Notes: a model not told the origin generated them from the letters alone. 52,066 nt of DNA from a bacterium (GCA_030649835.1 JAUSES010000063.1:1-52066), one strand, 5' to 3'; numbered from the stretch's first letter, positions 16,890-49,393 are shown. Numbers and translations are program-made.

Positions 16890-17150
16890 TCCCGTTAGAA
16901 GTCGCCTGCCCACTTTCGCCAGAACACAAAGTTGAGCTCAAGTGATGGCGGGCGGGCATAGTTCAGCTATTTCTACTGATGGAGGAAGTCGAATGTCCAG
17001 ATATTTTTTTCACTAGTCGTTAAACAAATACGGAAGTTCACGCGCTAAATAATTGAGATTTAGCTATCATATGAAAATTACTAGATATTATGAATACACA
17101 CGATACAATTACAGATACAGTCGCGCGTGAGCTTCCTACTTCTAACGGGA
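16890..17150. mobile_element. CCCGTTAGA-family miniature element overlapping the atpB 5' end
   Basis: Perfect 13-bp TIR TCCCGTTAGAAGT/ACTTCTAACGGGA; TTCA duplicated at 16886-16889 and 17151-17154. Confidence 0.85.
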
Positions 17151-17875
17151 TTCATATTTCGCTTTCGGCAGAACAAATAGGGACTCTGTGGGGGATTCCC
17201 GTCACAAATACAATGCTCATGAGCTTTATCGTGTTTGCACTTCTCGCAATCCTTGCGTTTTTTGTACGCAAAAATCTCGCACTCATTCCGGGGCGACTCC
17301 AGACGGCGGTAGAGACACTTTTTGTCGGTATTCTTGACTACATGACGGAGACCCTAGAGGATGCAAAGCTCGCACGAAAACTTTTTCCGCTCATCCTCAC
17401 TATTTTCCTTTTTATTTTTACCGCAAATATTATTGAATTTACTCCGGGGATCGGAAGTATTGGCTGGACGCACGGAGGGGAGTTCACGCCGCTCCTTCGC
17501 TCGATGAATACTGACCTGAACACAACACTTGCGCTCACGATCATTGTCTTTATTGTTATTGAGGTGGTCGGGGTGGCAACATTGGGCTTCTTGAAATATG
17601 GCAAGAAATTTGTTAATGTTACCTCGTTCCTGGGTTTTTTGGTGGGCATTATTGAGCTTTTTTCCGAAGTAGCGCGTTTGGTCTCGTACTCGTTTCGTCT
17701 TTTCGGAAACATCTTTGCGGGAGAAGTGATGATTTTAGTTATTCAGCACTTTGTACCCATGGTACTCCCCGTCCCCATTATGCTCTTTGAGGTTTTCGTC
17801 GGTTTTATACAGGCGGCAATCTTTGCGCTCCTCACACTCTTCTTTGTGAAGATTGCGGTCACGCCGGCGCATTAA
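17090..17875 (+). CDS. atpB: F0F1 ATP synthase subunit a
   Basis: PGRLQ, TDLNTTLAL, SFRLFGNIFAGE, FVGFIQAAIF; first ~20 aa come from the element. Confidence 0.95.
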   Translation: MNTHDTITDTVARELPTSNGIHISLSAEQIGTLWGIPVTNTMLMSFIVFALLAILAFFVRKNLALIPGRLQTAVETLFVGILDYMTETLEDAKLARKLFPLILTIFLFIFTANIIEFTPGIGSIGWTHGGEFTPLLRSMNTDLNTTLALTIIVFIVIEVVGVATLGFLKYGKKFVNVTSFLGFLVGIIELFSEVARLVSYSFRLFGNIFAGEVMILVIQHFVPMVLPVPIMLFEVFVGFIQAAIFALLTLFFVKIAVTPAH

Positions 17876-18067
17876 CGAGGTTTAAGGTGTTAGGTTTTAG
17901 CTTTTAGGAGGACACAGGGCGTGTTATCTTAAAAACTAATACCTATCAGGTTTTAGTTTAATATGATTATTAGTTAATTTAGTATTTTGAGTTTTAGCTT
18001 TGCGGTGTTGTGGAAAGTAGAGACTTTTCCTAACACCTAACACCTAAAACCTAAAAGCTTCCCAAAT

Positions 18068-18295
18068 ATGGATATTGAAGTAGCAAAAACATTAGGCATG
18101 GCACTCGCAGTGGGTCTTGGGGTTATTGGTCCCGGAATCGGTATCGGTCTCATTGTTGCAAAGGCGCTTGAGGCTATCGGAAGAAACCCAGATGCATCAG
18201 GTAAGGTACAGGCAACTATGTTCATTGGTATCGCCTTTACAGAAGCACTTGCAATTTTCGCGCTCGTCATCGCATTCATCGTTAAGTTCGCATAA
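18068..18295 (+). CDS. atpE: F0F1 ATP synthase subunit c
   Basis: GxGxGxG helix, IGRNP loop, FTEA carboxylate. Confidence 0.97.
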
Positions 18296-18310
18296 TCAGC
18301 ATACATTCAC

Positions 18311-18754
18311 GTGGAACAGATCATCTCAGTATTCGGTATCAATTGGAAACTCCTCCTCATTCAGGGGGTAAACTTTGGTTTGCTTCTTTTTATTCTTCAT
18401 CGTTATCTTTACAAGCCAGTAATCGCTATGGTGGACGAGCGTCGTGAAAAAATTGAAAATGCCATAAAAGATTCCGAGCGGATGGAGGTGGAGCTCGGCC
18501 TTGCGGAATCCGAAAAAGCTCGTATTGTCCGTGAAGCAACAGTAAAGGGTGATGAGCTCATTGACGCTGCAAAAAAACACGCAGAAACTGCCGAGGCTAT
18601 GATGATGAAAGATGCACACAGAAAAGCAGTACATCTTTTGAACGAAGCAGAGCACCGTACAAACCGCGAGCATGATGAAATGCTCCAAAACGCTGAGCGT
18701 GAGGTCGCGCGCATGGCAGTGTTGTCTGCAGAGAAAATTTTGCGTAAAGCATAA
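18311..18754 (+). CDS. atpF: F0F1 ATP synthase subunit b
   Basis: FGINWKLLLIQGVNF..LYKP..DERREKI; operon position. Confidence 0.93.
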   Translation: MEQIISVFGINWKLLLIQGVNFGLLLFILHRYLYKPVIAMVDERREKIENAIKDSERMEVELGLAESEKARIVREATVKGDELIDAAKKHAETAEAMMMKDAHRKAVHLLNEAEHRTNREHDEMLQNAEREVARMAVLSAEKILRKA

Positions 18755-18761
18755 CCATGAA

Positions 18762-18881
18762 TCCCGTTAGAAGCCGCGGTCGCTTCGTGGAAGAAAAATA
18801 TATGAAAAAAAGTCGAACAAAATTTATTAAAAATAACATAATGCAAGGGCTTCGCGCGAGCGCGACCTGCTTCTAACGGGA
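18762..18881. mobile_element. CCCGTTAGA-family element inserted in the atpH start codon
   Basis: TIR TCCCGTTAGAAGC/GCTTCTAACGGGA; A-TGAA[element]TGAA duplication. Confidence 0.85.
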
Positions 18882-19282
18882 TGAAAGCATCATGGTACGC
18901 AGAGGCGCTTTACGGAGCGCTCAAAGAAGTTGCTACGGAGGCGGAGTCAAAAAAAGTTTTTGTCAGCTTTCGGAAGGTTCTCTTAACGCGAGGGCACGAA
19001 AAACTTCTACCATTTATTTCGCGCGAACTGGAGAAAATTCTTATTCGCGAGAAGAACAATAATGAAGTGATTTTGGTAACCGCAGATGCAAAGAGTAAAA
19101 ACAAATGGTCCCATGCATATGACCATTATGAAAAAGAAGGGACAATTCTCAAAGGCGCTATTCGTCAAGACAAAGTAGATGAATCAATTGTTGGAGGATT
19201 CCAAATAAGAATGAAAGGAACATTAATAGACGGCAGTTACAAAAAATCCCTAGTCGAACTTTATCGCAACGTCACTAATTAA
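18881..19282 (+). CDS. atpH: F0F1 ATP synthase subunit delta (short)
   Basis: YAEALY N-terminus; VDESIVGGFQIR..LIDGS C-terminus; lies between atpF and atpA. Confidence 0.85.
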   Translation: MKASWYAEALYGALKEVATEAESKKVFVSFRKVLLTRGHEKLLPFISRELEKILIREKNNNEVILVTADAKSKNKWSHAYDHYEKEGTILKGAIRQDKVDESIVGGFQIRMKGTLIDGSYKKSLVELYRNVTN

Positions 19283-19293
19283 TAGGACACGAG

Positions 19294-47984: not shown

Positions 47985-48142
47985 TAGATAGTCCGTAGTC
48001 GCAAATAATTTATTTTTGTTACTCCCCGCACCCCACGAAGCTAGACGAAACTAGGTATCTACCTATAGCATACTATACGCTATAGGTAGATACCTAGAGT
48101 TCTGGAATTTACTGTATAAGTTTGCTACAATATCAAAATGGA

Positions 48143-48263
48143 TCCCGTTAGAGGTCGTAACTGTTATATTTTGACATCACGGGTTTTGAAAAGGAATACG
48201 TAGAAATTTTACTAATTATTAATTAGCTACGGAAACGCACAGCGTTTCCTACCTTTAACGGGA
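48143..48263. mobile_element. CCCGTTAGA-family element inserted in the mgtC start codon
   Basis: A-TGGA[TCCCGTTAGAGGT...ACCTTTAACGGGA]TGGA. Confidence 0.85.
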
Positions 48264-48751
48264 TGGACTTCACAACAATATTCACAGGCCAAGATTTAGA
48301 AATTACTTTAAAACTTTTCATCGCGCTTTTTCTTGGTATGTCGCTTGGTATTGAGCGCGCCATTGCAGGCAAAACCGCAGGGATGCGCACCTACGGACTT
48401 GTTACTATGGGTTCTACACTTTTTGTGATAGTCGGCGTTCTTGCGTCAGGTGGGTATGTAAGCGCGACTGGGATATTTACCGATTCATCAGCACGCATCA
48501 CCGCAGCGATTATTCAAGGCATTGGCTTTATTGGTGCAGGACTTATTTTCTTTAAAGTAGGAGATGCAAAAGTGAGCGGAGTCACGACAGCCGCGGGAAT
48601 TTGGGTTTCTGCTGGCGTGGGAGTAGCAATAGGTTATGGGTTTTATGCGTTAGCGATTATTTCAACAATTTTCACCCTCTTTGCTTTCACCGGTCTTTGG
48701 TATATTGAGAATAAAGTGAAGGCGTTTGCTCATTTTCCCGACGAGGACTAA
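48263..48751 (+). CDS. MgtC/SapB family protein
   Basis: GIER..GKTAGMRTY, RITAAIIQGIGFIGAG, GVTTAAGIW. Confidence 0.92.
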   Translation: MDFTTIFTGQDLEITLKLFIALFLGMSLGIERAIAGKTAGMRTYGLVTMGSTLFVIVGVLASGGYVSATGIFTDSSARITAAIIQGIGFIGAGLIFFKVGDAKVSGVTTAAGIWVSAGVGVAIGYGFYALAIISTIFTLFAFTGLWYIENKVKAFAHFPDED

Positions 48752-48764
48752 TTTTGCTCGCATA

Positions 48765-49193
48765 ATGTATATGATTTACATCTACGCGTTTCTTTCGGCA
48801 TTTACGGCAGCGCTTGTGGCTATTTTTGGCAAGCTTGGTTTAAAAAATATTGATCCAACTCTTGCTACCACCGTACGCTCCATTATCATGGCAGTCTTTT
48901 TGGTCGGGGTTGCATTTATGTTTAAAAAATTCGATGGATTTTCTCTTTCATCATTTACTGGTCGTGAATGGATACTCATTTCGCTCGCTGGCGTCGCGGG
49001 CGCACTGTCATGGTTATTTTACTTTCTTGCTCTTCGTGGCGGAACAGCGTCGAGCATTGTTGCCATAGATAGGTTGAGTATAGTTTTTGTTATCATTCTC
49101 GCGGCCATTTTTCTTGGAGAGGCACTTACATGGAAGACCATTCTCGGTTCCGCGCTCGTGGTTGTGGGTGCGCTTTTTATTGTATTGAAATAA
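48765..49193 (+). CDS. EamA/DMT family transporter (single repeat)
   Basis: ALVAIFGKLGL..IDPTLATTVR, SWLFYFLAL, VAIDRLS, FLGE. Confidence 0.88.
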   Translation: MYMIYIYAFLSAFTAALVAIFGKLGLKNIDPTLATTVRSIIMAVFLVGVAFMFKKFDGFSLSSFTGREWILISLAGVAGALSWLFYFLALRGGTASSIVAIDRLSIVFVIILAAIFLGEALTWKTILGSALVVVGALFIVLK

Positions 49194-49200
49194 CAGACGA

Positions 49201-49258
49201 CCGCGCCAACTATCACCAAGTCACAGCTATAGCTGTGACTTGGTGATAGTTGGCGCGG
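49201..49258. repeat. 58-bp perfect palindrome with no loop
   Basis: CCGCGCCAACTATCACCAAGTCACAGCTA|TAGCTGTGACTTGGTGATAGTTGGCGCGG. Confidence 0.9.
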
Positions 49259-49292
49259 GTTGGGCTCTTAGTGTAAGATACAAGGATACTTG

Positions 49293-49393
49293 CCCCGTTG
49301 AGAGTCTTCCCTGAAATGTTCGGTGAATTAGAAAAAACGCACGGTTTTAAATGGCAATTAAATATATTTATATGGAAAAAACTTCTACTGGGA
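49293..49393. mobile_element. Degenerate CCCGTTAGA-family element ending in the A of the alaS ATG
   Basis: CCCCGTTGAGAGT...ACTTCTACTGGGA; 3' part and upstream ATACTTG resemble the 47020 copy. Confidence 0.6.

Follow-up and report, generated by a model that had tools for sequence, protein, structure and literature searches.

Free-standing homing genes of the GIY-YIG family, such as the Seg and Mob genes of T4-like phages, are small selfish nuclease genes that lie beside a host gene, are present or absent at the same site and are patchily distributed. Inteins, group I introns and IStrons are likewise nuclease-bearing parasites made harmless to an essential host gene, in their case by splicing at the level of protein or RNA. 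Correia elements of Neisseria are short repeats with inverted ends and a short duplication, which occur in many copies, are co-transcribed with their neighbours, nest within one another and have a DDE transposase as partner, while the palindromic elements of Rickettsia are repeats tolerated within reading frames, for which we know of no encoded enzyme and no start-codon habit. The element described here was identified on a stretch of 52,066 nucleotides from a bacterium (GCA_030649835.1 JAUSES010000063.1:1-52066), the whole of which is referred to below as the window. It is a short repeat with complementary arms (CCCGTTAGAG and CTCTAACGGG) that begins at the start codon of a host gene and returns a rebuilt start codon at its far end, and its fullest form holds a GIY-YIG nuclease frame.

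Likeness to each of these systems was found to be partial. The element agrees with the Seg and Mob genes in its small selfish nuclease gene, its presence or absence at one site and its patchiness, together with a hint of co-converted flanks (30 sites, three related pairs), but it differs from them in having complementary arms, a 4-5-bp duplication, no DNA-binding domain and dozens of unrelated (A)TGAA sites, as well as in beginning at a host start codon, returning a rebuilt one and spawning miniatures. Unlike in Correia elements, the partner is a nuclease frame that fills the element rather than a DDE transposase, and insertion is tied to start codons, which are rebuilt. Tolerance within a reading frame, as known from Rickettsia, was seen for a copy in ychF (18 in-frame codons), although such in-frame copies are a minority among those studied. 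In contrast to inteins, introns and IStrons, the element duplicates the start codon and overlaps a stop codon with a start codon, and Rfam searches of the window and of 11 element loci gave no splicing signal.

For rRNA genes of the Candidate Phyla Radiation (CPR), GIY-YIG frames have been reported within insertions other than group I and group II introns, and these frames seem to stand outside spread by homing (PMC11270868). The lineage and the nuclease family are the same as here, and the genome holding the window (G000; 1.06 Mb, 43% G+C, 77 contigs, the window being contig C48) has cases of its own in 16S rRNA and RNase P RNA. As far as its available part goes, that source deals with rRNA genes only and makes no mention of start codons, arms, duplications or miniatures. 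No description of the arms, the duplication, the start-codon habit, the frame running from host ATG to ATGA or the miniatures was found in the full-text literature, most subscription journals lying outside the scope of this search.

The copies are likely to represent a family of selfish GIY-YIG nuclease cassettes, with miniature derivatives, that live on start codons. The miniatures, of 48 to ~180 nt, keep the arms and an inner hairpin, lie at many gene starts and are absent from the same sites in relatives. Essential genes tolerate the element, which rebuilds the start codon at its distal end and so leaves the host protein as it was.

The original prediction, which was made from the sequence of the window alone, had claimed seven copies, and all seven were found to be present, five as clear copies and two in decayed form (Table 1). 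An exact string search gave ten occurrences of CCCGTTAGA, which form four facing pairs (16891/17141, 18763/18872, 19295/19406 and 31258/31297) with lone 5' arms at 47021 and 48144; the 3' partner of the latter (48254) has one mismatch. The copies at 47020-47118 and 49293-49393 have decayed arms with at least two mismatches each, and were accepted as relics because they lie on an ATG and share the upstream flank ATACTTG, the assignment at alaS being based on position and flank, not on arm identity. When tested against chance, arms with up to one mismatch numbered 14 against 7.6 expected, and 14 was reached in 2 of 100 shuffles; this count alone is not beyond chance, but the exact facing pairs and the genome-wide pattern are. 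Five copies were found to pass directly from the arm into the ATG of a downstream gene, as claimed (at 18881, 19415, 47118, 48263 and 49393), and Pfam agrees with all five gene names (OSCP/atpH, atpA, ATP-cone, MgtC and alanyl-tRNA synthetase). The junctions also read exactly as had been given, namely ATGAA-T..A-TGAA at atpH, ATGGA-T..A-TGGA at mgtC and ATTCA-T..A-TTCA at atpB.

Relatives of the same genus were found to show these sites with and without the element. Among 20 congener loci spanning atpF and atpH, three are filled (G000, G022 and G024), two have only TAACGGG before the ATG and 15 are plainly empty, with a single ATGAA at the atpH start in all 17 unfilled loci. The interval between atpH and atpA is filled in three of 19 loci (G000, G022 and G016) and empty in 16, and in G011, sister to G022, it is just 9 nt long. 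The filled state equals the empty state plus the element and a second (A)TGAA, and since empty congeners possess a single ATGAA, insertion duplicated (A)TGAA and rebuilt the start codon. Sequence comparison thereby establishes the copies as insertions that rebuild the start codon and leave the host protein unchanged, and the expectation that orthologous empty loci reduce to one ATGAA held for the unfilled loci at both genes (17 of 20 at atpH and 16 of 19 at atpA). The predicted 4-bp TNNA duplication stood in so far as (A)TGAA occurs once when the site is empty and twice around the element; its length did not, as a 4-bp TNNA duplication plus an A borne by the element is indistinguishable from a 5-bp ATNNA duplication. 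The two TAACGGG footprints would fit a deletion between the host TAAC and the TAAC within the 3' arm.

A gene whose product begins MKEKLE.. was found to carry the full cassette in G000, G022 and G009, a 112-nt miniature in G001 and no element in at least ten congeners. In these empty loci ATGAA stands 7 nt downstream of a TGGTATGCT box, and as the upstream ATG of G000 stands at the same distance from the box, it is the host's original start. The pattern TCTAACGGGATG was identified in 20 of 41 genomes including G000 (present in 14 of the 24 congeners and, outside the genus, in 5 of 16 families of the order), with 0-17 matches per relative and 18 in G000, while a reversed control pattern gave two matches in all; the motif is therefore not fixed in relatives. 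No empty allele of this strain was found in the contigs of four DNA runs.

Across G000, 32 exact 5' arms, 26 exact 3' arms and 35 pairs were identified, and 32 copies, including the two decayed ones of the window, were curated and oriented by their downstream gene. The consensus of oriented copies is ATGAAT - CCCGTTAGAGGTC ... ACGG-stem-loop-stem-CC TA CCTCTAACGGG - ATGAAA. Copies fall into size classes of 45-49 nt (scarcely beyond the arms), ~112-121 nt, ~171-179 nt, 259 nt (atpB) and 327 nt, the ~171-179-nt class being the 120-nt type with a GC-rich hairpin module directly 3' of the 5' arm. Copies of 48 nt were also found nested within the hairpin loops of two larger copies (C64:12313-12537 and C74:59212-59380). 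A second flank class (ACACGAGT, ATACTTGT, ACTAGT and ACGTGT) was seen at eight G000 copies, and is explained by the atpA copy, at which the duplicate is ATGAAT in G022 and G016 but a mutated ACGAGT in G000.

A start codon follows 23 arm ends in G000, and at 19 of these it begins a frame of 83-917 codons. Outside the elements, ATGAA occurs 3330 times in the genome, and on a crude gene map made from reading frames only, at most 323 of these begin a frame of 80 codons or more as its first ATG and 558-869 fall outside any long frame. If insertion at ATGAA were random and only harmless copies survived, most survivors would be expected in non-coding DNA, yet on this frame-based map no G000 copy with a duplicate was found there. 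An excess at gene starts over target availability, as the original prediction implied, was thus confirmed.

A second family was noted alongside these elements, consisting of ~55-nt GC-rich bulged hairpins (CCTGCCCGCC...GATGGCAGGCGGG, with a variant CCCGCCCACTTTCGCCAG...GATGGCGGGTGGG) that occur nested in start-codon elements or alone (window 16905-16960 and G000 contigs C14, C31, C66, C74 and C17/C67). One variant shows a compensatory change (CACTT/AAGTG against CGCTT/AAGCG), and no Rfam match was found for these hairpins. The module in the window folds at -32 kcal/mol (z -3.9). Its reading as a ribozyme like that of hepatitis delta virus was dropped, as there was no match and it folds as a plain bulged hairpin.

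Table 1. Features of the start-codon element within the window (positions counted from its first nucleotide).
Feature	Position	Strand	Remarks
Ancestral atpB start position, now ATT	16870..16872	+	Homologous codon is ATG in congeners
Element copy in atpB, 261 nt	16890..17150	+	Co-oriented with atpB; (A)TTCA at 16885-16889 and 17150-17154
GC-rich nested hairpin module CCTGCCCAC...GATGGCGGGCGGG	16905..16960	+	Optional insert right after the 5' arm; absent in ~120-nt copies
Substitute atpB start codon within the element	17090..17092	+	In frame through the 3' arm (..TSNG-IHISLS); frame 17090-17875
Upstream ATGAA duplicate, the original atpH start (AUG1)	18757..18761	+	Congeners have ..TAAT followed by ATGAAAGC, with one ATGAA
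Relay frame at atpH, 39 codons, MNPVRSRGRF...ATCF	18757..18876	+	Opens at the old ATG, crosses the whole element and closes at the 3'-arm TAA, 4 nt short of the atpH ATG
Copy at the atpH start, long arms, 118-nt core 18763-18880	18762..18881	+	Its last base, A at 18881, opens the atpH ATG now in use
Mutated upstream duplicate ACGAGT at atpA	19288..19293	+	ATGAAT in the orthologous copies of two congeners (L013 and L017, against L012)
Copy at the atpA start, 120-nt core 19295-19414	19294..19415	+	Hairpin GGAAATGC-CTA-GCATTTCC adjoins the 3' arm
Mini copy in ychF, 48 nt	31258..31305	+	Read in frame within the gene
Decayed copy on the ATP-cone gene start	47020..47118	+	5' arm exact, 3' arm CTTTTAATGGG; without upstream duplicate, flank ATACTTGT
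Upstream ATGGA duplicate, the original mgtC start	48138..48142	+	5 nt past a TACAAT box
Copy at the mgtC start, 119-nt core 48144-48262	48143..48263	+	Hairpin GGAAACGC-ACA-GCGTTTCC
Strongly decayed copy on the alaS start	49293..49393	+	Arms CCCGTTGAGAG / CTTCTACTGGG; upstream flank ATACTTGC

Two clear copies of the window lie off a start codon. For atpB, the claim of a flanking duplication was upheld, with (A)TTCA on both sides, but the copy does not stand on the start codon and cuts the gene five codons past the ancestral ATG. In 21 congeners AtpB begins M-x-E-x-x-IHISLS, directly upstream of the G000 insertion point; in G000 the old frame (ATT GAA GAC AAA GGG ATT CAT) is interrupted by the element, which lies between the fifth codon and IHISLS, and the frame opened by the substitute start matches Pfam ATP-synt_A at 2.4e-40. 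From this copy it is clear that the target has a TNNA-like form and need not be a start codon, and that a gene is able to swap its first codons for element sequence. The ychF of G000 is longer by 54 nt (18 codons) than that of 25 congeners, with the 48-nt core and altered flanks replacing one codon, and the site is ATGAA (D-E-M-N) in nine of the 25. The 54 nt may be accounted for as 48 + 6, that is the core with a terminal base and a 5-nt duplicate; the flanks have since changed. It was also noted that the longest-frame starts of the ATP-cone gene (47097) and alaS (49351) fall inside the element, upstream of the rebuilt ATG, and automatic calls at such loci are likely to have false N-terminal extensions.

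Movement of the miniatures was apparent from a 112-nt copy at a gene for MKVLSISTDR.. (C58:68624-68735). It is identical at 107 of 112 positions to the G001 copy (gene MKEKLEAIVV..) and at 105 of 112 to a copy in L065 (gene MKAVIFAAGEGKRLRP..), giving 91-96% overall among three unrelated genes in three genomes. As one 112-nt unit occupies the start codons of three unrelated genes, the miniatures move, in agreement with the claim that they are non-autonomous and mobile. The 120-nt copy at atpA is 90-93% identical among G000, G022 and G016, with no change in length and with a compensatory change in its hairpin, while third codon positions of atpA in these genomes are 51-59% identical. The three genomes do not form a clade (tree of YchF and AtpB, 20 genomes), and the filling of atpA amounts to three changes, of which at least two are forced by supported branches. 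Identity is highest on the element and falls over ~100 nt on each side. Over atpA codons 2-31 (30 sites in three related, non-independent pairs), third-position identity is 0.69 for filled pairs, 0.53 for filled-empty and 0.51 for empty-empty pairs, and deeper in the gene the values are 0.50, 0.49 and 0.47. To judge from these few aligned sites, the pattern fits recombination that recently carried the element into one and the same site, short flanks being converted along with it.

The family was also traced beyond these genomes. A scan of one genome per species with CCTCTAACGGGATGAA gave at least 117 stretches, 80 of which were made loci; going by title, the matches listed belong mostly to Parcubacteria-type groups or to uncultured bacteria of this radiation, a smaller part being scattered elsewhere, and since ~280 chance matches to a 16-mer were estimated for such a collection, the scattered ones are meaningless. 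Among the matches listed (80 loci) there are 102 arm-plus-start hits, and 77, in 59 loci, possess a 5' arm. ATGAAT lies upstream in 47 of these 77, a flank that was absent from the search pattern, and five of the 77 (one doubtful) are directly preceded by another arm, so that copies stand in tandem at the rebuilt site. Depth on contigs from groundwater or freshwater (four runs, four studies) was found to rise from ~19 to 224-448 on the arms. For many of these contigs the match breaks off at 18756/18757 and 18885/18886, where the two ATGAA repeats have their outer edges.

An alternative is that only the full cassette is mobile, with the miniatures being immobile tombstones that decayed in place. 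A miniature does correspond to a cassette minus the loop of its inner stem (~90 nt, a roughly 20-nt hairpin and 14 nt), its hairpin is gene-proximal in 29 copies and distal-only in two despite symmetric ends, the G000 copies are only 70-80% alike, and the MKEKLE.. gene has a cassette in three genomes and a miniature in a fourth. The 112-nt miniature on three unrelated start codons nevertheless argues against decay as the sole explanation, as do the 48-nt copies nested in the hairpins of others, the near-identical atpA copy in three non-sister genomes and the pile-up of metagenome contigs from four studies on arms of the long-armed non-coding type, and this alternative is considered improbable.

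The parent of the miniatures was recognised through the 327-nt copy of G000 (C43:8253-8579), which contains a frame of 85 amino acids matching Pfam GIY-YIG (PF01541, 4.6e-14); a second copy of this type, 94% identical, lies across the ends of contigs C17 and C67. Elsewhere the full cassette is more compact, at 275-282 nt bounded by 12-14-bp complementary arms. In L036 and L064, 275-278 nt lie between the arms, and a single frame of 94-95 codons runs from the upstream ATG. It starts ATG AAT CCC GTT AGA, so that MNPVR is the 5' arm, and ends CTA ACG GGA TGA, so that LTG and the stop are the 3' arm (protein MNPVRD...RFLSLTG), with the TGA overlapping the downstream ATG as ATGA. The host's old ATG thus opens the nuclease frame, and the arms encode both ends of the protein. 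In a sample of 150 other genomes of the order, the 30 best loci were examined (one, L155, being the C43 copy of G000 itself); in 16 of the 30 the nuclease frame ends in an ATGA that opens a frame of 102-500 codons, and in eight the protein begins MNPVR-like at ATGAAT.

Homologues of the nuclease were identified in 3320 protein clusters (E <= 1e-5), mostly from Parcubacteria, the best 120 being mostly of 94-95 amino acids. At source the homologues bear no other names than putative endonuclease, excinuclease ABC subunit C or GIY-YIG nuclease family protein. When 24 of the cluster proteins were aligned with P0001, 24 of 24 showed the N-terminus M-N/S/G-PVRD and 25 of 25 the C-terminus RFLSLTG, and Y14, Y25, G27, R35, H39 and E59, to which we presume catalytic roles belong, are invariant in all 25. 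The closest solved structures by sequence are UPF0213 proteins (1zg2, 2e-9) and SLX1, and no NCBIfam model was found for the protein. The nuclease is a bare catalytic domain of 94-95 amino acids, and the insertion sites share only (A)TGAA; the long target (about 14-40 bp) and separate DNA-binding domain of the homing type are thus both lacking.

The original prediction had tentatively named an IS1380-like DDE transposase as the partner, and this was not upheld, since no transposase gene lies by the arms anywhere in the genome and the element that shares them encodes the GIY-YIG nuclease. Terminal inverted repeats with a 4-5-bp duplication would be expected of a classical miniature inverted-repeat transposable element moved by this or another ordinary transposase located elsewhere, with the GIY-YIG frame as a mere passenger, and G000 does hold one DDE_Tnp_1 gene (contig C53), four rve genes and five Y1_Tnp genes. 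However, none of these is adjoined by an arm, including the DDE_Tnp_1 hit (no IS1380-specific model was used), no arm pair of G000 spans more than about 330 nt and exact arms without a partner were confined to tiny copies and the ends of contigs; the search for a TnpB-type domain in G000 was negative too. Outside the family, many genomes have exactly one GIY-YIG frame between the arms, which form its first and last codons, and the arm motif and the nuclease gene (E <= 1e-15) co-occur across families, with five of 16 other families having the motif, five the gene and four both. Movement by an ordinary transposase is accordingly regarded as very unlikely.

The Y1_Tnp (HUH-type) frames, of 225-272 amino acids, lie at C38:10933-11274, C20:2772-3011, C66:17662-17919, C76:329-592 and C23:13628-13849. 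Each is flanked by short palindromes of its own, which differ from the arms, and they look like transposases associated with repetitive extragenic palindromes. Further GIY-YIG frames were identified within RNA genes of G000. At C34:33521-33795 (L004) such a frame lies in the loop of a stem CCCGTGAGAT...ATCTCACGGG directly 5' of GAGGAAAGTCCGAACAC; the stem was read as P3 of the RNase P RNA gene, for which Rfam aligns onward at 83 bits, below its gathering score of 100, and the same arrangement is found in L177 (G039, of a different family of the order). At C14:16070-16420 (L005) a frame flanked by perfect 13-bp inverted repeats (CCCAGCCCATTCA / TGAATGGGCTGGG) lies inside the 16S rRNA gene, near model position 80, and Rfam aligns the rRNA across this 305-nt insert.

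The arms of cassettes from other families vary in matched pairs (CCCGTACGAA/TTCGTACGGG, CCCGATAGTG/CACTATCGGG, TCCGTTAGAG/CTCTAACGGA and CACGTTAGAG/CTCTAACGTG), with ends such as TCCG../..CGGA and CACG../..CGTG, and a more distant GIY-YIG group has the matched arms ACCCAGTTAAAT/ATTTAACCGGGT. Across 86 copies, arm positions 1-12 pair and positions 10-12 covary (G-C with A-T and C-G with T-A), with 1002 of 1118 cells being Watson-Crick over 13 positions and position 13 mostly mismatched. The matched variants and the covariation show that pairing of the arms is under selection. Within the cassette a 12-13-bp long-range stem was found between the LRKR and KRFL codons (GGAAACGCTTGAG ... CTCAAGCGTTTCC in G000 and GGAAGCGCTTTA ... 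TAAAGCGCTTCC in L064). The inner hairpin of the miniatures corresponds to this stem, with 19 different stems among 32 miniatures that have a clear local hairpin, and by alignment a miniature looks like a cassette from which the loop of the inner stem has been deleted. The hairpin was gene-proximal in 29 copies, distal-only in two, on both sides in two and undetected in 36. Given their symmetry (T-CCCG ... CGGG-A), the ends would yield a new ATG whichever way round the element stood; the side bias points to co-oriented cassettes that decayed where they stood, to selection or to a combination of these.

Conserved structure with covariation would also be expected of a cis-regulatory RNA, or of an intron-like element removed from the transcript, that involves no insertion of DNA, and the GIY-YIG frames in hairpins of 16S rRNA and RNase P RNA make removal or tolerance at the RNA level plausible. 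This explanation is extremely unlikely, as a clean duplication separates filled from empty sites, the host frame is intact without splicing and neither an intron nor another Rfam family was matched. No Rfam family reached its gathering score on the window, and among 11 element loci searched at E <= 5 only the 16S rRNA and RNase P RNA hits were credible, the eight other hits (miRNA and small RNA) being far below threshold and none an intron.

The 3' arm can be read in three frames, each with an outcome favourable to the host gene. CTC TAA stops 4 nt before the ATG, GGA TGA overlaps it and TCT AAC GGG ATG fuses with the host gene in frame. An upstream ATG was found in 63 copies, of which 25 are free of internal stops to an arm end (16 ending in TAA, four in TGA and five fusions). 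At atpH, the upstream atpF ends in TAA and two bases on the old ATG opens a relay frame of 39 codons. In miniatures of 60-200 nt this relay frame is open in 20 of 53, against 7.4 +/- 2.3 after shuffling of the interior (maximum 16 in 1000), while the other two frames are open in 10 and 8 of 53. In 47 of 99 copies the length is 1 mod 3, so that the old ATG and the TAA of the arm share a frame. The original prediction had suggested that the element may act as a translational control module; what was observed instead is this short frame, which would pass ribosomes on from the old ATG to the rebuilt one. Bacterial genes are most commonly coupled in translation through an ATGA in which stop and start overlap.

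With regard to promoters, -10-like boxes upstream of the first ATG numbered 44, 22, 21 and 22 at 6, 7, 8 and 9 nt in 764 G000 frames, against ~10 per position farther up. This peak suggests that about a tenth of G000 genes are leaderless, while a minority of frames have words like the Shine-Dalgarno sequence, with a peak at 6-8 nt. That the element generally prefers leaderless genes was rejected, a -10 box being found at 6 of 14 copies here and 8 of 49 elsewhere.

Open relay frames beyond chance, together with the strong bias in orientation, would also suit copies that had been co-opted by the host as a structured leader which tunes translation or RNA processing, with the base of the arm stem at the AUG. 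The atpA copy could be seen in the same light, being exactly 120 nt in all three genomes and 90-93% identical against a synonymous identity of 51-59%, with a compensatory change in its hairpin, as could upstream flanks that drift to ACTTGT or ATTCAT, which would lengthen the stem over the AUG. The same sites are, however, empty in most close relatives, sister genomes included, identity declines smoothly into the flanks as after recent gene conversion, no Rfam family was found and G-U pairs are no commoner than A-C. Co-option of kept copies by the host is therefore thought rather unlikely.

Under the preferred reading of a selfish nuclease cassette with miniature derivatives, the nuclease would drive the spread of the element with a cut in or close to (A)TGAA, or else where the arm stem has its base, and would move the miniatures in trans. 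Its relatives UPF0213 and SLX1 are structure-specific nucleases; for a bare catalytic domain akin to these, with arm pairing under selection, recognition of the stem or of a cruciform, as opposed to a long sequence, is favoured as a conjecture. The host gene may be translated by termination and reinitiation from ribosomes that began at the old ATG, for which reason many miniatures would keep an open relay frame to the TAA or ATGA of the arm. The bias towards start codons would result from the choice of TGAA as target together with selection, because only at a start does the cassette gain a promoter and a start codon while the host loses nothing. Fixed non-palindromic sticky ends that force the orientation were rejected as an explanation, as the atpB copy is co-oriented yet flanked by TTCA, not TGAA.

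Several observations weigh against this reading. The relay frame is stopped internally in 33 of 53 miniatures and the upstream ATG is lost in 36 of 99 copies, so that relay translation is not required everywhere. Copies within G000 are only 70-80% alike, and there is thus no recent burst in this genome. The co-conversion signal is confined to the few non-independent sites given above, and the gene-proximal position of the hairpin would also be explained if the miniatures had arisen on the spot, by decay of co-oriented cassettes. Non-canonical pairs comprise 23 G-U against 25 A-C in the arms and two against three in the hairpin; this equality gives no sign of pairing at the RNA level, and whether pairing acts in DNA or RNA is not settled by it. 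A bare domain with a target of ~5 nt and 3330 sites in the genome would be toxic as a simple sequence-specific homing nuclease.

A bolder possibility, put forward tentatively, is that the 95-amino-acid GIY-YIG protein is itself the transposase of a new class of prokaryotic DNA transposon, which would recognise its own arm stem or cruciform, cut (A)TGAA, insert and excise precisely, and parasitise translation starts by use of the host promoter and start codon and of the ATGA overlap. A free-standing nuclease gene of the homing type with transposon-like ends and derived miniatures could prove to be such a class.

Two further repeats were noted in the window. The interval between atpB and atpE (17878-18062) has a long inverted repeat AGGTGTTAGGTTTTAGCTTTTAGG ... 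CCTAACACCTAAAACCTAAAAGCT around an AT-rich stretch, which is swapped for other letters in contigs of other runs (joints 17902-18030). Another small frame of GIY-YIG type, ~36-38% identical to P0001, lies on the minus strand at 5010-5204 and occurs also at C74:71004-71204 and C22:28941-29138; these frames are flanked by CTGGATTGC...CGCTCGCAAAGAC repeats, which suggests another nuclease-linked repeat family.

The element represents a third way, besides RNA splicing and protein splicing, for a nuclease-bearing parasite to sit harmlessly in an essential gene, and it points to a possible mechanism of transposition by a nuclease only. It also assigns a definite role to small GIY-YIG proteins that form a very large group without a name (the 3320 clusters), some of which are wrongly called excinuclease subunit C. 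For the annotation of ultra-small bacteria, gene callers will choose the wrong start at dozens of genes per genome and will miss genes such as atpB whose first codons were swapped for element sequence. The arms, finally, are a ready marker of gene flow among uncultured ultra-small groundwater lineages.

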